Below, piece after piece: positions 7,077 through 47,860 of a stretch of DNA of 51,811 bases. The stretch is from Eubacteriales bacterium (GTDB lineage: Bacteria; Bacillota; Clostridia; Oscillospirales; CAG-382): positions 1 to 51,811 of the forward strand of contig JAZSGA010000040.1 in the NCBI GenBank assembly GCA_045532495.1, in the 5' to 3' direction. Numbering within the stretch: position 1 is the stretch's first letter; each line of letters begins with the position of its first letter. A model generated the notes under the pieces. It saw only the letters and a program-made list of their open reading frames with translations. It was not told where the DNA came from and did no database searches. Position numbers and translations under genes: made by a program.

Positions 7077-7283
7077 ATGAGCAAAAAAGGCGGTTTTTTT
7101 GACAATTCCCTTTTAGGTTCCGATGTACCGGACCACATCAAGGGGATATCCTGCAATGTAAAAAACTGCATTTACCATGACGGTGATTCTTACTGTACCG
7201 CATCACGCATAAGCGTGGGACCAAGCTTTGCAACGGCATGCACGGATACGGTATGCGCCACATTCAAGGCAAAGAGTTTTTAA
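7077..7283 (+). CDS. DUF1540 domain-containing small Cys-rich protein
   Basis: 68 aa with a strong SD (AAAGGAGG). The duplicated Cys pattern C-x-V-x-x-C-x-Y...C and TAC...VCATF is typical of DUF1540. Confidence 0.75.
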   Translation: MSKKGGFFDNSLLGSDVPDHIKGISCNVKNCIYHDGDSYCTASRISVGPSFATACTDTVCATFKAKSF

Positions 7284-7287
7284 AGCT

Positions 7288-8793
7288 TTATTTTGCCGAA
7301 ACAAAATCCTTTGCCGCACAAAGCAGTTCTTCCTTTGTTCTGCCCACAGAGCCCGAAAAACGAACCTTTGCGCTGCGTAAAGCATCAAGGGGTGCGGGAA
7401 CTGCGGTTTTTGTAAGCTCGGAAAGCTCATAAATAACCTCGAAACCGGGGTTCTGAGGCTGTTTGCCAAGTGAACGAAGTACATCGGCGGCAAACTTATA
7501 GGGGGATGCGGTGGAGGCGGTGAGAATCTTTACGTTCCTGCCGCTTGCCGCATTGCTCTTTTCCGCAGACTGAGCCGCATAAACTGCACATGCAGTATGG
7601 GGATCGATAAGGTAGTTATAATTATCAAACACATTTTTAATGGTTTTTGCCGTGTTTTCTTCGGAGCAGTAGTCTGCCGCAAAGTTTGCTTTGATCTCGT
7701 CAAGCACATCTGCCTCTACGGCATATTTTCCGTTTTCGGAAAGAGCTTTCATATAGGCTGTGCAGCGTTCGGGACCTGCAATTACATACAAAAGTCGCTC
7801 AAGATTGGAGGATATGAGAATATCCATGGAAGGCGACATGGTGGTATAAAAGCTGCGGTTGCGATCATATACGCCGGTGGTAAGGAAATCGGTGAGAATG
7901 TTGTTGCTGTTGGAGGCACAGATAAGCTTGCCTACATAAAGTCCCATGCGTTTTGCAATGTATGCGGCAAAAATGTTGCCGAAATTACCCGTGGGAACAA
8001 CGATATCTATTTCTTCGCCAAGCTTTATATCACCGCTGTTTACAAGGTCGCAGTAGGCTGAAAAATAGTACACTATCTGGGGAGCAAGTCTGCCCCAGTT
8101 TATGGAGTTTGCGCTGGAAAGGAAATAGCCTTGATTATCGAGCTCCTGTGCAAAATCCTTATCGGAGAATATCATTTTTACGCCGGTCTGGGCATCGTCA
8201 AAATTGCCTTTGATTGCGCATACGTTTACATTGTTGCCGTCCTGAGAAGTCATCTGAAGCTTCTGCATTGCAGAAACACCGTCTTCGGGATAAAACACGG
8301 TAATTTTAACGCCGTCTACGTTTTTGTAGCCCTCAAGCGCCGCCTTGCCGGTATCGCCGGAGGTGGCAACAAGAATATAAGCTGTGCGGTTTTCGCCCGT
8401 CTTTTTAAGTGCCGCCGAAAGAAGTCGGGGCATTATCTGAAGCGCCATATCCTTGAAGGCGCAGGTGGGACCGTGCCACAGTTCAAGCACGCGGTGGGTT
8501 TCGCCCAGGGAATATACGGGTGCCGCTCCGCCGATAAATTTATCGGATGCATATGCCGCACCGGCAAATGCCAGCAGCTCGTCATAGCTGTAATCATCCA
8601 GGAATTTTGAAAGGATAACCGCCGCACGGCTGTTGTAATCAAGACCGCACAGTGCGGATATGTCGTCAGCCCCCATGGCAGGGAAGCTTTCGGGCATGAA
8701 AAGTCCGCCGTCTGCCGCAATGCCCTGTTTTATAGCCTGGGCTGCGCTTACGGGTGTGGATTTTTTAACATCTCTTGTGCTAAAGTACTTCAT
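7288..8793 (-). CDS. thrC: Threonine synthase
   Basis: 501 aa with the PLP-lysine motif GPTCAFKDMALQ and the long-form ThrC layout. Its start overlaps the stop of the upstream dipeptidase gene (ATGA). Confidence 0.93.
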   Translation of the reverse strand: MKYFSTRDVKKSTPVSAAQAIKQGIAADGGLFMPESFPAMGADDISALCGLDYNSRAAVILSKFLDDYSYDELLAFAGAAYASDKFIGGAAPVYSLGETHRVLELWHGPTCAFKDMALQIMPRLLSAALKKTGENRTAYILVATSGDTGKAALEGYKNVDGVKITVFYPEDGVSAMQKLQMTSQDGNNVNVCAIKGNFDDAQTGVKMIFSDKDFAQELDNQGYFLSSANSINWGRLAPQIVYYFSAYCDLVNSGDIKLGEEIDIVVPTGNFGNIFAAYIAKRMGLYVGKLICASNSNNILTDFLTTGVYDRNRSFYTTMSPSMDILISSNLERLLYVIAGPERCTAYMKALSENGKYAVEADVLDEIKANFAADYCSEENTAKTIKNVFDNYNYLIDPHTACAVYAAQSAEKSNAASGRNVKILTASTASPYKFAADVLRSLGKQPQNPGFEVIYELSELTKTAVPAPLDALRSAKVRFSGSVGRTKEELLCAAKDFVSAK

Positions 8794-10808: not shown

Positions 10809-12500
10809 TTATAAATTCATTATGACGGGAAGTATCATAGGTTTGCGCTTGGTTTTGGCGTAAAGGTAATCGGTAAGTTCATCCTTTACCTTTGCCTTAA
10901 TGGCGTTCCATTCCTTCATGTTTTTATCAAGGCATTTTTCCAGCGAATCGTGGGCTATGGTCCTTACTTCTTCCATAAGTTCTTCTGCCTCACGCACATA
11001 CACAAATCCACGTGATACTATATCTGGGCCCGAAACGATTTCGCCGGCATCTATATCCACCGCCGCCACAACCACGATAAGTCCATCCAAAGCCAGGTGG
11101 CGTCTGTCACGCAGAACGATGTTGCCCACATCGCCCACTCCAAAACCGTCCACCAACACCTTGCCTGAGGGCACGGTTCCCGTTACTTCCATTTTTTCTT
11201 CGGAGATTTCTATAACCTTGCCGGTTTCGGGGATAAGGATATGCGAAGGATCCTCGCCCACCTCCTTGGCAAGTTCGTAATGCGCTTTAAGGTGCTTGTA
11301 TTCACCATGGATGGGAATAAAATAACGGGGTTTTGTAAGCACATGCAAAAGCTTTAAATCATCCTGACACGCATGTCCCGAAACATGCACATCCGCAACG
11401 GCATCGTTAAGCACGGTAACACCCTTTTTAAGCAGTTCGTTTATGATCTTGGTAACCAGCTTTTCGTTGCCGGGGATAGCTGTGGCTGAAATAACCACCA
11501 GATCGCTGTCGGAAAGCGTAACTTTATCATGATCCGAATATGCCATGCGATAAAGCGCACTCATGGGCTCGCCCTGGCTGCCGGTGGTAACGAGAGTAAC
11601 CTCTTCGGGCTTGAATTTATTTATTTCGTTTATATCAATAAGTGTGCCCTTGGGAATATCCATATATCCCAGACGTGTTGCCACGTCAACTATATTGAGC
11701 ATGCTTCTGCCCGTTACGGCAACCTTTCTGCCATAGCGGCGTGAGCAGTCGATTATCTGCTGAACACGGTGAACGTTGGAGGAAAATGTTGCAATTATAA
11801 TACGCTTTGTGCATCCGCAAAAAATGTTTTCAAGCGAAACACCCACTTTTCGTTCAGACATGGTGTATCCGGGACGCTCGGCATTGGTAGAATCGCAAAG
11901 CAGGGCAAGCACGCCCTTGTTTCCAAGCTCGCCAAAACGGGTAAGATTAATGGGGCCGCCCTGAATGGGTGTGAGATCCACCTTGAAGTCACCCGTGAAA
12001 ATAACAGTACCTGCCGGGCACGTAACCGCAATGGCGCAGGCATCGGCGATGGAATGGTTTACATGTATAAATTCCAGCGAGAACGAACCTATTTTTATTG
12101 TATCCCCCGCATCAACACAGCGCAGGTCAGCCTGTTTTTCAAGTCCGTGTTCAACAAGCTTGCCTTCGATTATTCCTATTGTAAGACGTGTGGCGTAGAT
12201 CGGTACATTCAGTACACGCAAAACGTAGGGTATGGCACCTATATGGTCCTCATGGCCGTGGGTTATAAGTATACCCTTTACGCGGGAGGCGTTTTTTTCA
12301 AGGTAGGTGGTATCGGGAATAACAAGGTCAATGCCGGGCATGTCCTCATCGGGGAAACCAAGACCGCAGTCGATAACTATAATATCGTCGCCGTATTCCA
12401 CAACGGTCATATTTTTGCCTATTTCACCTATACCGCCAAGGGGGATTATTCTAACTTTTTCAGAGTTCAGTTTTTTGGTTGTCTTTTTTGCTCGTGCCAA
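10809..12500 (-). CDS. rnj: Ribonuclease J
   Basis: 563 aa with LGGIGEIGKN, the metallo-beta-lactamase motif HGHEDHIG and a beta-CASP region. The only in-frame start is TTG at 12500, with AAGGAG 12 nt upstream. Confidence 0.93.
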   Translation of the reverse strand: MARAKKTTKKLNSEKVRIIPLGGIGEIGKNMTVVEYGDDIIVIDCGLGFPDEDMPGIDLVIPDTTYLEKNASRVKGILITHGHEDHIGAIPYVLRVLNVPIYATRLTIGIIEGKLVEHGLEKQADLRCVDAGDTIKIGSFSLEFIHVNHSIADACAIAVTCPAGTVIFTGDFKVDLTPIQGGPINLTRFGELGNKGVLALLCDSTNAERPGYTMSERKVGVSLENIFCGCTKRIIIATFSSNVHRVQQIIDCSRRYGRKVAVTGRSMLNIVDVATRLGYMDIPKGTLIDINEINKFKPEEVTLVTTGSQGEPMSALYRMAYSDHDKVTLSDSDLVVISATAIPGNEKLVTKIINELLKKGVTVLNDAVADVHVSGHACQDDLKLLHVLTKPRYFIPIHGEYKHLKAHYELAKEVGEDPSHILIPETGKVIEISEEKMEVTGTVPSGKVLVDGFGVGDVGNIVLRDRRHLALDGLIVVVAAVDIDAGEIVSGPDIVSRGFVYVREAEELMEEVRTIAHDSLEKCLDKNMKEWNAIKAKVKDELTDYLYAKTKRKPMILPVIMNL

Positions 12501-12761
12501 ATCTGTACAGCACTCCTTTCATAGATAAAAATGTAAATTATGTAAAAAGCTCATTGTTATTGTTGTCAGAATAAAAAATAAATTTCACCTAAGGAAAATT
12601 TTTTTCAAAAAACAAAGCACAACAAACAATACCGACAAAGATTGCGGCTTGCACAGCTTTGGTTTTGATCCATAAAACGGTATGGAACCGCATGCCTGCA
12701 ATATCCGGAATCCTCTCGGAAAAAACAACAATATAATCACGGACACTATAAAGTTATATAT

Positions 12762-12790
12762 ATTATGCACTATTTTTATGAACTTGTCAA
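12762..12790 (-). promoter_or_regulatory. Candidate sigma-A promoter for rnj (implies a leader of about 255 nt)
   Basis: On the minus strand: TTGACA (12790-12785), 17-nt spacer, CATAAT (12767-12762). Confidence 0.4.
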
Positions 12791-12889
12791 GTGGCATATG
12801 CACCACTGTTTTTGCCATATATCCCCATTTTATATGCTTTTTGAATAAAAAGCGCCGGATTGCGCCAACACAAAATTGGAAAAAAGCGG

Positions 12890-12918
12890 TTGACAATTTT
12901 AATTTTGCGTGCTATACT
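12890..12918 (+). promoter_or_regulatory. Sigma-A promoter of the metNIQ operon
   Basis: TTGACA (12890-12895), 17-nt spacer, TATACT (12913-12918). Confidence 0.6.
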
Positions 12919-12989
12919 GTCTTTATATTATTAAGGAAAGGAATCGGAATGTCATGTTTGCTTCAAATTCCACAGCAACAATAGGCTCT

Positions 12990-13052
12990 ATGTGCATGTG
13001 TGTCATGCGCATGCGTTGTGCTGTCCGGCTTCCGCTTCCAGATATCACATAA
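12990..13052 (+). CDS. Candidate Met/Cys-rich leader peptide MCMCVMRMRCAVRLPLPDIT
   Basis: 20 codons with 4 Met and 3 Cys among the first 10. The ATG lies 5 nt after the stop of mini-ORF1. The stop at 13050-13052 lies just downstream of the antiterminator arm (13030-13037). Confidence 0.35.
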   Translation: MCMCVMRMRCAVRLPLPDIT

Positions 13053-13070
13053 TCCCAGACGTAAAATCAC

Positions 13071-13101
13071 AAAGCGGAATGGTTTGCCCTTCCGTTTTTT
13101 T
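13071..13101 (+). terminator. Intrinsic terminator (attenuator) immediately upstream of metN
   Basis: Stem CGGAATGG/CCCTTCCG (13075-13082 and 13087-13094, one mismatch), loop TTTG, then T7 (13095-13101). The metN SD GGAG follows at 13105. Confidence 0.6.
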
Positions 13102-13115
13102 GTTGGAGTATAAAA

Positions 13116-14108
13116 ATGATACAGCTTAAAAACCTGACAAAAACCTTTCATACTCCCGCAGGCAATATATGCGCTCTTAAAAACATAAATCTTACTGTCA
13201 GCGACGGAGAAATCTTTGGCATCATAGGTCTTTCCGGTGCAGGCAAAAGTACCCTTGTGCGCTGTATAAATCTGCTGGAGCGCCCTACCACAGGGCAGGT
13301 AATTATTGACGGCGAGGATATAACCGCCGTGCCCCAAAAGCGTCTGCTTGAAGTTAGACGCGGAATTGGAATGATATTCCAGGGCTTTAACCTTCTGGCA
13401 CAACGAAATGTTATAAACAACGTTTGCTATCCGCTGGAAATTGCAGGAGTAAAACGCACCGATGCAAAGGCACGTGCCATGGAGCTTTTGGAGCTTGTTG
13501 GCCTTGCCGACCGCGCAAAGGCATATCCTGCCCAGCTTTCGGGCGGGCAAAAGCAGCGTGTTGCCATTGCTCGCGCACTTGCCACAAACCCCAAATACCT
13601 TTTGTGCGATGAGGCAACCAGTGCGCTTGACCCAAACACCACCCAGGCAATACTCGCCCTGCTTAAAAAAATCAACCGTGAAATGGGCGTTACCATTATC
13701 GTAATAACCCACGAAATGAAGGTTATTGACAGCATATGCGATAAGGTTGCCGTTATTGATAAAAGCATGATAGCCGAGTGCGGCAAAGTATCCGACGTTT
13801 TTGTAAATCCGCAATCGGACATTGCCCGCGAGCTTATCCTGCCCAAATCCAGGGTTACAGACAAGGTTCACGGCAAAAGAATGCTCCGAATTATATTTGA
13901 CGGTGAGGAATCCGGCATGCCTGTTATTTCAAACCTTGTTATATCCAGCGGTGTGGCTGTTAACATCATGTTTGCCGACACCAAGGATATTGACGGCAAG
14001 GCCTTTGGTCAGATGCTTTTGCAGATACCCGACGGAGACCGCAGTTTTGAGCGTGTAACCGCTTACCTTGATTCCATTAACCTTAAATATTCCGAGGAGG
14101 TGGTTTAA
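13116..14108 (+). CDS. metN: Methionine ABC transporter ATP-binding protein
   Basis: 330 aa with Walker A GLSGAGKST, signature LSGGQKQR and Walker B LLCDEATSALD, plus a C-terminal NIL-type domain. Confidence 0.95.
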   Translation: MIQLKNLTKTFHTPAGNICALKNINLTVSDGEIFGIIGLSGAGKSTLVRCINLLERPTTGQVIIDGEDITAVPQKRLLEVRRGIGMIFQGFNLLAQRNVINNVCYPLEIAGVKRTDAKARAMELLELVGLADRAKAYPAQLSGGQKQRVAIARALATNPKYLLCDEATSALDPNTTQAILALLKKINREMGVTIIVITHEMKVIDSICDKVAVIDKSMIAECGKVSDVFVNPQSDIARELILPKSRVTDKVHGKRMLRIIFDGEESGMPVISNLVISSGVAVNIMFADTKDIDGKAFGQMLLQIPDGDRSFERVTAYLDSINLKYSEEVV

Positions 14109-14783
14109 ATGTCCGATATGCTTATGAAACTGTGGACCGAAGGCGAGCTTGTGCTTGGTATATGGGAAACCATATATATGGTTCTGCTTTCCACCGTTAT
14201 TGCATACCTTTTGGGACTTCCCATCGGAATAATTTTAAACGTAACATCGGAAGACGGTATATGCCCCATGAAAACCCTTAACAAAGTGCTGGGTTTTGCC
14301 GTTAACGTATTGCGAAGCATCCCATTTGTTATATTAATGGTGGCTCTGCTGCCTGCGGCAAAGCTGGTTGTGGGCACATCCATGGGCAACCGTGCCATGA
14401 TATTCACCCTGGTGGTGGCGGCGGCACCGTATGTTGCACGAATGGTGGAATCATCGCTAAAGGAAGTTGACAAGGGCGTAATCGAAGCCGCTCAGGCAAT
14501 GGGCACATCATCCTTCGGCATAATCCGCAAAGTGCTTATCCCGGAAGCAGGCCCTTCGCTTACCGTGGGTGCTGTTATTTCCACCGTTACCATACTCGGT
14601 TATTCTGCCATGGCAGGCACCATTGCCGGAGGCGGATTGGGAAAAATAGCCATAATTTACGGTTATCAGCGTTCGGAATACGACATCATATGGGTATGCA
14701 TGCTGCTTACCATTATAATTGTTGAAATTATTCAGGAAGTCGGAATGAGAATAGCACTTAAATCCGACAAACGAATAAAATAA
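14109..14783 (+). CDS. metI: Methionine ABC transporter permease
   Basis: 224 aa with 5 hydrophobic segments and the EAA-type loop VIEAAQAMG. Its start abuts the metN stop. Confidence 0.93.
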   Translation: MSDMLMKLWTEGELVLGIWETIYMVLLSTVIAYLLGLPIGIILNVTSEDGICPMKTLNKVLGFAVNVLRSIPFVILMVALLPAAKLVVGTSMGNRAMIFTLVVAAAPYVARMVESSLKEVDKGVIEAAQAMGTSSFGIIRKVLIPEAGPSLTVGAVISTVTILGYSAMAGTIAGGGLGKIAIIYGYQRSEYDIIWVCMLLTIIIVEIIQEVGMRIALKSDKRIK

Positions 14784-14855: not shown

Positions 14856-15671
14856 ATGAAAAAAATTCTTGCTATTGCTCTTGCACTTTCCGCCATCTGC
14901 CTTGCAGGTTGCGGCGAAAAGGCAGCTGACGACAAAACCATCACCGTGGGCGCAAGCTCCACACCCCACGCCGAAATCCTTGAACAGGTTAAGGCTCCTC
15001 TTGCAGAACAGGGCTACACACTTGAAATAAAAGTGTTTGACGACTATGTTCTTCCCAACACTGCTCTTAACGACGGCGAACTCGACGCAAACTACTTCCA
15101 GCACACACCTTACCTTCTCAGCTTCAACGAAAAGAACGGCACAAAGCTTGTTTCTGCTGAGCTTATCCACTACGAGCCCTTTGGCATTTACGGCAACGGT
15201 GTTACAGCTCTTGCTGACCTTGCAGAAGGCGCAACCATCCTTATCCCCGCTGACGACAGCAACGAAACACGTGCTCTTCTTCTTCTTGAACAGGAAGGCC
15301 TTATTGTTCTTCCCGAAGAGGCAAGCGCAGCTGTTGGCGTAACCACTCTTGATATAATCGACGCATGCGGTTACAACATCCAGGCTCTTCAGGCTGATAT
15401 GGTTCCCGCTCAGCTTGCAAACAGCGATGAAGGCACAATTGCTGTTATCAACGGCAACTACGCTCTTCAGGCAAACCTTAACATTGCAGACGCTCTTGCT
15501 ATAGAAAACGCAGAAGGCGATGCAGCTCAGACATATGCAAACATCATTGCCGTTAAGGAAGGCAACACCGAAAACGAAAAGATTAAGGCTCTCATCGATG
15601 CTCTTAAAACAGACGCTATAAAGACATACATCGAAGAAACCTACAACGGTGCAGTTGTTGCAATATTCTGA
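14856..15671 (+). CDS. metQ: MetQ/NlpA family methionine-binding lipoprotein
   Basis: 271 aa with signal peptide and lipobox LAGC. Family-typical blocks include FDDYVLPN, NYFQH and the C-terminal YNGAVV. Confidence 0.93.
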   Translation: MKKILAIALALSAICLAGCGEKAADDKTITVGASSTPHAEILEQVKAPLAEQGYTLEIKVFDDYVLPNTALNDGELDANYFQHTPYLLSFNEKNGTKLVSAELIHYEPFGIYGNGVTALADLAEGATILIPADDSNETRALLLLEQEGLIVLPEEASAAVGVTTLDIIDACGYNIQALQADMVPAQLANSDEGTIAVINGNYALQANLNIADALAIENAEGDAAQTYANIIAVKEGNTENEKIKALIDALKTDAIKTYIEETYNGAVVAIF

Positions 15672-24468: not shown

Positions 24469-24570
24469 GGTGACAGAGTAGGATTCCGTGCGTAAAGTGC
24501 CGATTGAACGGGGAGTTGTCTTTCGGACGAAAAGTTTTCTTGCGGTACGGTTTCCGCATCCCGCTGCCGC
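24469..24570 (+). promoter_or_regulatory. THF (folT-motif) riboswitch-like aptamer
   Basis: Contains CAGAGUAG...CGUGCGUAAAGUG...ACGGGGAG...CCGCAUCCCGCUG. These match by eye the conserved AGAGUAG, GCGUNAAGUG, GGGA loop and CAUCCGCU elements of the THF-I riboswitch. P1 pairs CAGAG with CGCUG, with the same A-G mismatch as the E. siraeum reference. The aptamer precedes a folate-type ECF S component. Confidence 0.6.
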
Positions 24571-47465: not shown

Positions 47466-47631
47466 TGTGAAATATCAACTTCGTTGATGTGAAATAACTT
47501 ACTTCGTAAATTGTGAAATTTGATGCTAACATCAAGTGAAATGAAATAAATCCTCACACGCCGCAGGCGTATTTCACATTGCGAAGCAATATTTCACGCC
47601 CGTATGGCATTTCACAAATCCGATAGGATTT
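47466..47631. repeat. Iteron-like array: 4 direct and 3 inverted copies of (T/A)GTGAAAT, alternating with mini-palindromes
   Basis: Direct copies are at 47466, 47488, 47512 and 47535. Inverted copies (ATTTCAC) are at 47571, 47591 and 47609. Spacing is 18-24 bp, and every gap holds a 3-6 bp palindrome. Confidence 0.65.
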
Positions 47632-47640
47632 ATTTCGTTG

Positions 47641-47673: not shown

Positions 47674-47758
47674 TGGTGGGGGAAGGTGGATTCGGACCAC
47701 CGAAGTCAGTGACAACAGATTTACAGTCTGCCCCCTTTGGCCGCTCGGGAATTCCCCC
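47674..47758 (-). tRNA. tRNA-Tyr (anticodon GTA), type II with long variable arm, CCA encoded
   Basis: Reverse complement is GGGGGAATTCCCGAGCGGCCAAAGGGGGCAGACTGTAAATCTGTTGTCACTGACTTCGGTGGTCCGAATCCACCTTCCCCCACCA. It folds with a 7-bp acceptor stem, anticodon loop CTGTAAA and T arm GGTGG/CCACC. Confidence 0.9.
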
Positions 47759-47785
47759 ATACATTCTCGGCTGCTGCCGAGAACC

Positions 47786-47860
47786 TGGAGCTGGTGAAGG
47801 GAGTCGAACCCCCAACCTGCTGATTACAAATCAGCTGCTCTGCCATTGAGCCACACCAGC
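47786..47860 (-). tRNA. tRNA-Thr (anticodon TGT), CCA encoded
   Basis: Reverse complement is GCTGGTGTGGCTCAATGGCAGAGCAGCTGATTTGTAATCAGCAGGTTGGGGGTTCGACTCCCTTCACCAGCTCCA. It folds as a cloverleaf with anticodon loop TTTGTAA and T loop TTCGACT. Confidence 0.9.

Follow-up and report, generated by a model that had tools for sequence, protein, structure and literature searches.

We analyzed the leader of the metNIQ methionine (Met) transporter operon in a 51,811-nt stretch of DNA from an Eubacteriales bacterium (contig JAZSGA010000040.1; the whole stretch is called the window, and its positions are used throughout). The leader is probably a ribosome-mediated transcription attenuator of the trp/his type, which would sense charged Met-tRNA through the AUG codons of a 32-codon open reading frame (ORF). 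A leader-peptide attenuator had been proposed at this locus in an earlier sequence-only reading, and the prediction is supported by a conserved reading frame, a Shine-Dalgarno (SD) sequence, an intrinsic terminator and an antiterminator pairing that is better than chance.

Conservation of the leader upstream of metN

The 80 closest metN loci were picked by MetN protein only from one-genome-per-species GTDB contigs (61–73% MetN identity; mostly metagenome-assembled genomes (MAGs) of Oscillospiraceae and other Clostridia), and 450 nt upstream of metN was inspected. An SD-preceded, Met-rich short ORF is present in 58 of the 80 loci (18–41 codons, 4–12 Met and 0–7 cysteine (Cys) codons; for example, MRRSGMMMDMMMCMCSMCMMMRAQNRCSSCFISD), with a GAAAGGAG-type SD about 7–13 nt ahead of the start codon. 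A hairpin and T-run terminator was called after the stop codon in 54 of these 58, beginning mostly 15–35 nt past the stop (about 0–60 nt overall). Closer relatives (77–85% MetN identity) were found by protein search and contig look-ups, and all nine distinct ones share the layout, with peptides such as MKNSVFVMTDMMMCMSTMCMTSVAL, MKNSVFLNTVMTMRMCAMCMCLVV and MKTYFNVSVMTDMMMCMGNFLMCMLCAA. Their N-terminal residues drift freely with the frame kept, gaps being 3 or 6 nt within the ORF and of arbitrary length after the stop, and the peptide is poorly conserved outside the Met codons. The expectation that a Met-rich frame would be retained in relatives was thus borne out in both samples (58/80 and 9/9), the rest of the peptide varying. 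Judged by these comparisons, the element is the usual arrangement before metNIQ/metQ in Oscillospiraceae and related Clostridia and not an oddity of one genome.

Some loci depart from the common pattern. In L058, L063 and L067 (also L010 and L056) the leader ORF and terminator lie 100–320 nt upstream of metN instead of 20–50 nt; the extra spacer gave no Rfam match, and might contain a small gene or another control element. Five contigs binned as Alloprevotella, Sodaliphilus or Phocaeicola (L026, L036, L037, L145 and L204) carry a Clostridia-type metN/metQ with a Met leader. Their loci are almost identical to those of Oscillospiraceae MAGs and are probably binning contamination of the assemblies.

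Promoter, leader ORF and gene context

The features of the leader and operon are as follows.

12890–12918, + strand: sigma-70-type promoter, with −35 box TTGACA (12890–12895), 17-nt spacer, extended −10 box TATACT (12913–12918) and TG (12910–12911)
12933–12943, + strand: purine-rich SD region of the leader ORF, AAGGAAAGGAA, read from the sequence
12940–12953, + strand: region A, GGAAUCGGAAUGUC, overlapping both the SD (3′ end) and the stretch between SD and start codon, and pairing with region B (minimum free energy (MFE) and ensemble folds)
12949–12984, + strand: 'mini-ORF1', MSCLLQIPQQQ*, a 12-codon frame of 11 sense codons and a TAG stop (12982–12984)
12954–13052, + strand: leader ORF, MFASNSTATIGSMCMCVMRMRCAVRLPLPDIT*, 32 codons and a stop, its start aligned to the start codons of relatives with frame-preserving indels; Met codons at 12954, 12990, 12996, 13005 and 13011, Cys codons at 12993, 12999 and 13017
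12972–13024, + strand: long imperfect hairpin inside the ORF, with core AUGUGCAUG (12990–12998), loop UGUGU and CAUGCGCAU (13004–13012)
13027–13039, + strand: region B, GGCUUCCGCUUCC, in the 3′ part of the ORF, pairing with region A or, through 13030–13037, with the 5′ arm of the terminator
13072–13101, + strand: intrinsic terminator, with 5′ arm AAGCGGAAUGG (13072–13082, region C), loop UUUG, 3′ arm CCCUUCCGUUU (13087–13097, region D) and U7 (13095–13101)
13105–13108, + strand: SD of metN, GGAG, 7 nt before the metN ATG and directly after the terminator; relatives keep TTGGAG
13116–14108, + strand: metN, ABC (ATP-binding cassette) ATPase with a NIL domain (ORF list and Pfam domains)
14109–14783, + strand: metI, permease (ORF list)
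14856–15671, + strand: metQ, lipoprotein-9 family binding protein (ORF list)

Pfam domains were assigned to MetN and to the neighboring genes in the loci of relatives. The promoter scores 11/12 and is the top + strand promoter-like site in a scan of 12500–13300; its position is kept in relatives L081 and L083. The predicted transcription start is at about 12925, which implies a leader of about 190 nt, just as the sequence-only reading had deduced from the same TTGACA-17-TATACT site. The other parts named in that reading can likewise all be read in the sequence, namely the SD, a Met/Cys-rich frame from the ATG at 12990 to a stop at 13050–13052, the exact complementarity of 13030–13037 to 13072–13079, and the terminator with its U7.

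Where the two readings part is in the coding frame. The leader had been parsed as two ORFs, mini-ORF1 followed by one starting at ATG 12990 (which encodes MCMCVMRMRCAVRLPLPDIT and ends with the TAA stop at 13050–13052). Both frames are present, but ATG 12954 and ATG 12990 share a frame with no stop between them, and a 47-aa ORF (12909–13052) contains the 32-codon ORF. With the SD aligned to AAAGGAGG, ATG 12954 lies 8 nt downstream and ATG 12949 only 3 nt, and in the alignment ATG 12954 coincides with the single start codon of the relatives; ATG 12990 is without an SD of its own. Mini-ORF1 is out of frame with the Met-rich ORF and has no counterpart in the aligned relatives, each of which has one start codon. 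The functional ORF is most likely the single 32-codon frame at 12954–13052 rather than two ORFs, and mini-ORF1 is probably not used. The density of Met and Cys codons in this ORF (4 Met in 10 codons) is above chance for the window DNA: of the 103,564 ten-codon windows that its 51.8 kb provide over six frames, those with six or more Met plus Cys codons and no stop occur in the leader alone.

On the minus strand, a terminator-like hairpin and T-run (GTGTTGGCGCAATCCGGCGC TTTTT) lies at 12852–12871, directly upstream of the metN −35 box, and a strong promoter-like site (TTGACA-17-CATAAT, 12790–12762) faces an RNase J-like gene (10809–12500). The hairpin may insulate the two divergent units.

Predicted terminator, antiterminator and SD-sequestering helix

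The core of the terminator consists of CGGAATGG (13075–13082), loop TTTG and CCCTTCCG (13087–13094), followed by T7 (13095–13101). It folds at −10.4 kcal/mol (RNAfold), and was missed by a simple terminator scanner, there being one U/C mismatch in the stem. Within the 3′ part of the ORF, TTCCGCTT (13030–13037) is the exact 8-bp reverse complement of AAGCGGAA (13072–13079), providing an antiterminator pairing. Region B can alternatively pair with region A, and the A:B helix is a candidate anti-antiterminator, apparently conserved family-wide, that would also sequester the leader SD. Alternative pairings between GGAA and UUCC repeats had been suggested in general terms; the repeats are present, and what they form is one specific conserved helix (12940–12953 with 13027–13039).

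Independent MFE folds of the window and nine relatives gave the same four elements: the long-range A:B helix, a small hairpin near the start codon, the Met/Cys-codon hairpin and the terminator. In the folds of relatives the A:B helix joins a purine strand at the SD to a pyrimidine strand at or after the end of the ORF. The leader folds better than its shuffles (z −2.19). In a ten-sequence alignment of the window's subfamily, pairing in the terminator reaches 94.9%, and both partners have changed in four of its pairs; the covariation score lies above all 500 shuffles, every slid register being far lower. Column-based counts of A:B and B:C pairs were dropped and alignment-free duplex tests used instead, because MAFFT misaligns the 5′ region and places the window's region B several columns off that of the relatives. 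In these tests the duplex of the SD region with the ORF tail had a mean z of −2.14 against shuffles (nominal p 4e-18, 62 leaders), and that of the ORF tail with the 5′ arm plus loop of the terminator a mean z of −1.06 against dinucleotide shuffles (nominal t-test p 3e-11, 63 leaders), p-values that overstate independence in that the sequences are related. Against the 5′ arm alone, the ORF tail did no better than shuffles (mean z −0.17); the conserved antiterminator partner extends into the terminator loop and the beginning of the 3′ arm, and its partner in the ORF tail lies typically at −27 to −5 from the stop (63 leaders). When the register of the loop 8-mer was slid as a control, 70% was paired in the matching register and 33–51% elsewhere.

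The largest subfamily has tails of the form ...RAQNSGSPCFIS; the partner of their codons NNN-UCG-CC is the 3′ half of the loop of the terminator together with the bases that open its 3′ arm. Pair B2:L7 is formed in 23 of 23 members (G-C in 11, A-U in 10 and G-U in 2). The Met run of this main subfamily pairs with the last ORF codons, as in a classical 1:2 helix, and compensatory variants occur (GGAUAUGA:UCAUAUCC, GGCUGAGA:UCUCAGCC, GGAGA:GCUCC and GGAAA:UUUCC). These pairings fit the classical 1:2 / 2:3 / 3:4 scheme, with the predicted control codons in region 1. In the window leader, B pairs with the SD/start region (12940–12953), and no more than a 6-bp pairing joins the first Met/Cys codons to the stop region. 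The ORF ends also differ. Among the closest relatives (L081–L094) the leader stop lies 5–10 nt before region B (CUUGUCUUUC), and at the same position the window reads CGG, so that its ORF continues for nine further sense codons and crosses B, which is also the case in the main subfamily. The position of the stop relative to the antiterminator strand appears to be evolutionarily mobile.

The weaker pairing of the window copy bears on the idea that it is a decaying, non-regulating remnant, serving only as a constitutive partial terminator. It has few Met codons (4 internal ones compared with 5–11 in most relatives), a two-ATG start, GCAACAATAGGCTCT in place of the ATGACCGATATGATG run of relatives, a terminator whose −10.4 kcal/mol is among the weakest of the set, and a 1:2-type pairing of only 6 bp. 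Decay is nonetheless improbable: the window copy keeps an intact promoter, SD, frame and Met/Cys hairpin, together with region B, the exact 8-bp antiterminator and the U7 terminator, and regions A, B and C have co-varied (GGAA/UUCC in the window, GAAAG/CUUUC in relatives), which argues for continued selection.

The Met/Cys-codon hairpin

The core sequence AUGUGCAUG is nearly self-complementary, and two copies of it can pair with each other, two of the pairs being G·U. Across ten sequences, pairing in the hairpin core reaches 96.7%. The gap between the two ATG-YRY-ATG arms, counted on nucleotides with the frame ignored, is a multiple of three in 35 of 35 distinct cases (0, 3, 6, 9 or 12 nt), and this change of loop length in 3-nt steps only suggests that the hairpin is also translated. 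The middle codons of in-frame M-x-M triplets are TGC (71), CGC (14), TAC (7) and TGT (5). The TGC:TGT ratio within M-x-M is 71:5, compared with 80:39 elsewhere in the same ORFs (Fisher p 9e-6). Cys, Arg and Tyr are chemically unlike, and their codons UGC, CGC and UAC all keep the helix, the third-position C pairing with the G of the opposite AUG; codon choice thus tracks the pairing of the hairpin. Because TGC is favored over TGT and the Arg and Tyr swaps preserve pairing, the Cys codons look at least partly structural. Of the Met/Cys sensing proposed in the sequence-only reading, the Met part is supported by conservation of the Met-rich frame, and what had been seen as Met/Cys sensing may be mostly Met sensing.

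Plausible roles for the hairpin are those of a pause or synchronizing hairpin like the trp 1:2 helix, a brake on the ribosome, or a shield that keeps the internal AUGs from initiation. A bolder and more tentative proposal, which we regard as possible but would not favor, is that the self-complementary module AUGUGCAUG-(3n+2 nt loop)-CAUGYGCAU is a dedicated sensing device that must be both translated and folded. It could act as a pause or synchronizing hairpin for RNA polymerase, or else gate the speed of the ribosome and so amplify slight drops in Met-tRNA, and would have been recruited, or have arisen convergently, before Met genes in several phyla (Clostridia, Acidobacteriota and possibly Actinobacteria). 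Were this so, 'Met attenuators' whose nucleotides serve both as codons and as structure would form a new and widespread class, defined by this module.

Searches for known RNA and peptide families

The leader had no match in Rfam 15 at gathering thresholds, and a search with lax filters at E<=10 found nothing on the + strand of 12750–13200. Among the models without a match in either search were those of the S-adenosylmethionine (SAM) riboswitches (SAM-I/S-box, SAM-II to VI and SAM/SAH) and the T-box (RF00230), in agreement with the earlier view that the leader is neither an S-box nor a T-box. Seventeen related Met-ORF leaders also gave no Rfam family match. T-boxes upstream of metN were recovered with this search in two more distant loci (L072:1211-1449 and L079:1166-1418), which therefore hold a T-box where the others hold a Met leader ORF, and this indicates that the sensing system has been exchanged at the orthologous locus. 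Elsewhere in the window a full-length tetrahydrofolate (THF) riboswitch was found at 24472–24568 on the + strand (RF01831, 83 bits, E 9e-18); together with the T-boxes of L072 and L079, it shows that the search works on such loci. Also found, in the minus-strand stretches 47566–47640 and 47677–47860, was a Gut-1 RNA (RF01706, 72.5 bits) adjoining two tRNA genes, which fits an origin of the window in gut Clostridia. Ten peptides of the family, including that of the window, had no meaningful Pfam or NCBIfam match at E<=10. The Clostridia Met-leader family is absent from Rfam, Pfam and NCBIfam.

A translation-independent RNA switch was considered, in which the A:B closing helix, the small 5′ hairpin and the long Met/Cys hairpin form a three-helix fold that recognizes a Met-related signal, as an aptamer (SAM, Met) or a protein-binding site (a regulatory protein), the ligand stabilizes A:B and the ORF is incidental. 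The layout is that of a classic OFF-riboswitch, with the 3′ strand of the closing helix doubling as the antiterminator strand. The fold beyond shuffles (z −2.19), the 96.7% pairing of the hairpin core in ten sequences, and the RNA-level selection seen in the TGC:TGT ratios and in central codons that are almost only YRC (TGC, CGC, TAC) would also suit it. What an RNA-only switch leaves unexplained is the coding behavior. Loop lengths step by 3 nt (35/35), runs of AUG outside the helices vary in number and yet stay in frame, nearly all members have a start codon preceded by an SD at about 7–13 nt, and in every case the frame ends inside B or just ahead of it. The loops and junctions vary, with no conserved unpaired pocket nucleotides seen, and there was no Rfam match. 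Moreover, five loci (L016–L018, L028 and L034) keep the Met-rich ORF and the terminator without the two-arm hairpin. We consider such a switch unlikely.

Predicted mechanism and points against it

For the preferred attenuator reading we computed the parts, the extent to which ORF, frame and terminator are conserved, and the alternative pairings, and from these we infer that the ORF is translated, that ribosomes stall under Met limitation and that the choice of structure is kinetic. Transcription would start at about 12925, and a ribosome would load at the strong SD and translate the ORF as RNA polymerase proceeds. With Met plentiful, the ribosome would run through B (13027–13039) to the stop at 13050, masking or unwinding B, the terminator (13072–13097 and U7) would form, and transcription would end before metN. 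If Met-tRNA is scarce, the ribosome would stall at AUG (possibly also UGC/UGU) codons at 12990–13019 and open the Met/Cys hairpin; B would be left free to pair through 13030–13037 with 13072–13079, the terminator would not form, and metNIQ would be transcribed. In an untranslated leader, A (12940–12953) would capture B, the SD would be hidden and the terminator free, giving a default OFF state, which fits the preference of naked full-length RNA for A:B plus terminator.

Folding with ribosome masks reproduces the switch on a transcript cut at 13086, where the 3′ arm of the terminator is not yet out. The probability of the B:C pairing, P(B:C), is then 0.67–0.93 with the ribosomal A site on a Met/Cys codon and 0.36 with the ribosome on the stop codon, rising to 0.92–0.94 if an initiating ribosome occupies region A. 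Queued ribosomes could keep region A occupied in this way. Equilibrium folding of the full leader, in contrast, does not reproduce the switch.

Several observations weigh against the attenuator reading. On the full transcript at equilibrium the terminator forms under every ribosome mask tried (P>=0.83), and since it dominates in all of them, the choice must be kinetic. In the trp attenuator of Escherichia coli the terminator is the most stable pairing too, and the decision is likewise kinetic. In the window and its closest relatives the competitor of B is the SD region, not the control codons, and because A is the SD region, a ribosome stalled 40–60 nt downstream would not by itself block A:B. 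With a ribosome queued behind the stalled one and A left free, P(B:C) is only 0.05–0.24, and A:B can win. Initiation on the leader needs formylmethionyl-tRNA (fMet-tRNA), and severe Met starvation could lower initiation as well. The 1:2-type pairing of the window copy is weak (6 bp), and the copy has 4 internal Met codons where relatives have as many as 11. The hairpin is clearly under RNA-level selection, which leaves room for a role independent of translation, and the nominal p-values of the duplex tests carry the qualification given above. Translation of the leader, termination at 13101 and the response to Met are predictions from sequence.

Occurrence beyond metN homologs

The genome collection was scanned for the exact motif ATGTGCATG-N6-ATGTGCATG, for which we estimate about 17 chance matches in 596 Gb on both strands, and at least 120 loci were found. 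In 62 of 120 of the matches listed a MetN or MetQ homolog lies 131–754 nt downstream on the same strand, and the frame of the motif closes within 30 codons; several more of the matches listed are cut off by the end of the locus. Carriers among the matches listed belong to Oscillospiraceae, Lachnospiraceae, Peptostreptococcaceae, Anaerovoracaceae, Acutalibacteraceae and Christensenella. Huintestinicola butyrica (L008) and Herbinix hemicellulosilytica (L154) are cultured species with the leader. The four matches examined in Streptomyces (L111, L121, L125 and L152) were rejected as leaders and treated as chance, as they lie inside long ORFs, and several proteobacterial matches, either inside long ORFs or with no Met gene downstream, were treated in the same way.

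Three Acidobacteriota MAGs (L161 at 7257–7500, L163 and L178) and a Eubacteriales MAG (L189) have an M-C-M-x-x-M-C-M ORF followed by a terminator-like hairpin and T-run. In all four the next gene encodes a pyridoxal phosphate (PLP) enzyme of Cys/Met metabolism, and those of L163 and L189 match PF01053 and are MetY-like. Since the Acidobacteriota leaders precede PLP enzymes, the motif marks Met biosynthesis genes in another phylum too. In Herbinix hemicellulosilytica (L154:1540-2000) a Met-rich leader ORF, MNKDFILFSNNNSFDMDMRMMCMQGMCMLCCALKEYPDIG, and a terminator lie about 250 nt upstream of an M20/M42-type peptidase, which may release Met and be under the same control.

The recurrence of the motif in distant lineages (before metNIQ/metQ in Clostridia, and before MetY-like genes in Acidobacteriota and Eubacteriales) could also suggest that M-C-M-x-x-M-C/R-M is an exit-tunnel arrest peptide of the TnaC type, sensing SAM, free Met or a different small molecule rather than hungry AUG codons; the predicted metL peptide of Streptomyces lividans contains a similar C-M-C-R-R-M-C (PMC8079986). 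A conserved amino-acid motif would be expected of arrest peptides such as TnaC, SecM and ErmL, and this one is conserved, yet codon choice is strongly constrained (TGC and seldom TGT), and swaps among Cys, Arg and Tyr follow the pairing. The central residue follows the YRC codons and not side-chain chemistry, and avoidance of the synonymous TGT points to a constraint on the RNA. The x-x and all flanking residues vary freely, and members without the motif retain Met runs. The polarity would be awkward as well, in that arrest at abundant Met would lead to antitermination and so induce uptake when Met is plentiful. A nascent-peptide sensor is therefore unlikely.

Even less probable is that the ORF encodes a functional Met/Cys-rich peptide (for metal binding, redox or storage), the hairpin and U-tract being merely its terminator and expression of metNIQ coming from another site or from constitutive read-through. 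Some Met/Cys-rich peptides are able to bind metals, and the ORF has a strong SD. However, the terminator and metN have no promoter-like site between them, the distance from the U-tract to the metN ATG being just 14 nt, and the ORF is strictly linked to Met genes among the matches listed. The poor conservation outside the Met codons, the lack of any Pfam or NCBIfam match, and the fact that conserved parts of the tail are explained by RNA pairings with compensatory changes also speak against a functional peptide.

Comparison with known systems

Control by S-box and T-box is the textbook picture of Met uptake and synthesis in Firmicutes, and ribosome-mediated attenuation is regarded as mainly proteobacterial and actinobacterial. 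Among the classical attenuators treated in the comparative studies consulted, none senses methionine. No description of a clostridial Met leader peptide was found in the literature, most subscription journals being outside the scope, so an earlier description is possible. What appears to be new is a Met-specific attenuator with a hairpin of translated codons, predicted to be widespread in Clostridia and to recur in other phyla.

With the E. coli trp (trpL), his, leu, thr and pheA attenuators, the leader has in common an SD-preceded short ORF rich in cognate codons, an intrinsic terminator before the first gene, and mutually exclusive pairings (candidate anti-antiterminator, antiterminator and terminator), with the ORF tail or stop in the antiterminator strand. 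The terminator is thermodynamically favored in both, hence a kinetic decision, and the predicted control codons of the main clostridial subfamily lie in region 1, paired with region 2, as in E. coli. Differences are that the control codon AUG is the single Met codon and also the initiation codon, that metNIQ is a transporter and not a biosynthetic operon, and that the lineage is Clostridia. The clostridial leader adds a local hairpin of Met and Cys/Arg/Tyr codons, and a pairing of the SD with the ORF tail that in the window replaces the 1:2 helix.

In the literature covered, Met leader peptides appear only as predictions, in other phyla. MetL of Campylobacter jejuni lies upstream of metBA (PMC3847290); its initiation was seen by translation initiation site (TIS) profiling, in a study that also reports CJsORF19 (MMYQMR) upstream of a Met-ABC binding protein (bioRxiv 10.1101/2022.11.09.515450). 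In S. lividans, metL (...ARCMCRRMCAF) lies upstream of metNIQ, and the authors report no recognizable intrinsic terminator (PMC8079986). These are also short ORFs enriched in Met codons before Met genes and proposed as attenuators, and S. lividans metL likewise alternates Cys and Met codons before metNIQ, a likeness judged by eye on the published peptide. Their descriptions are annotations of single genomes and include no comparative or structural analysis, and in all of them the Met response is a prediction. A survey of Actinobacteria described no RNA element for Met genes (PMC1262725).

Leader-peptide attenuators known in Firmicutes include the His leader of hisS/hisZ in Bacilli (PMC2965389) and a Leu-rich attenuator peptide of the Staphylococcus aureus ilv-leu operon (PMC5794164). 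They share with the clostridial leader the Gram-positive setting and ribosome-mediated attenuation through runs of amino-acid codons in place of the usual T-box, but concern other amino acids, genes and clades, have no sequence relation to it, and are without a codon hairpin. The Met T-box and SAM-I leaders of Firmicute metNIQ/metQ have the same genes, position and terminator/antiterminator output, and the T-box also reads the charging of tRNA-Met; the leader described here differs in being without tRNA- or SAM-binding architecture and in its predicted sensing by the translating ribosome. Mycobacterial polycysteine short ORFs, which are leaderless, attenuate cys genes (bioRxiv 10.1101/834739). 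Runs of sulfur-amino-acid codons in upstream ORFs and control by ribosome stalling are common to both, whereas the mycobacterial ORFs have Cys runs and reportedly no classical intrinsic terminator, and the clostridial leader is Met-dominated, SD-dependent and terminator-based.

If the attenuator reading is correct, many gut and rumen Clostridia (Oscillospiraceae, Lachnospiraceae, Christensenella and others) would control their Met transporters by an uncatalogued attenuator, which annotation pipelines miss for want of an Rfam, Pfam or NCBIfam entry. It would raise the question of how a system that needs fMet-tRNA to start can report a shortage of Met-tRNA, and would be a clear case of simultaneous coding and structural selection on the same nucleotides. 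The element would also offer a compact, portable Met-responsive switch for the engineering of anaerobes, and a marker by which more Met-related genes could be found, examples being the M20 peptidase and the MetY-like enzymes downstream of the motif.

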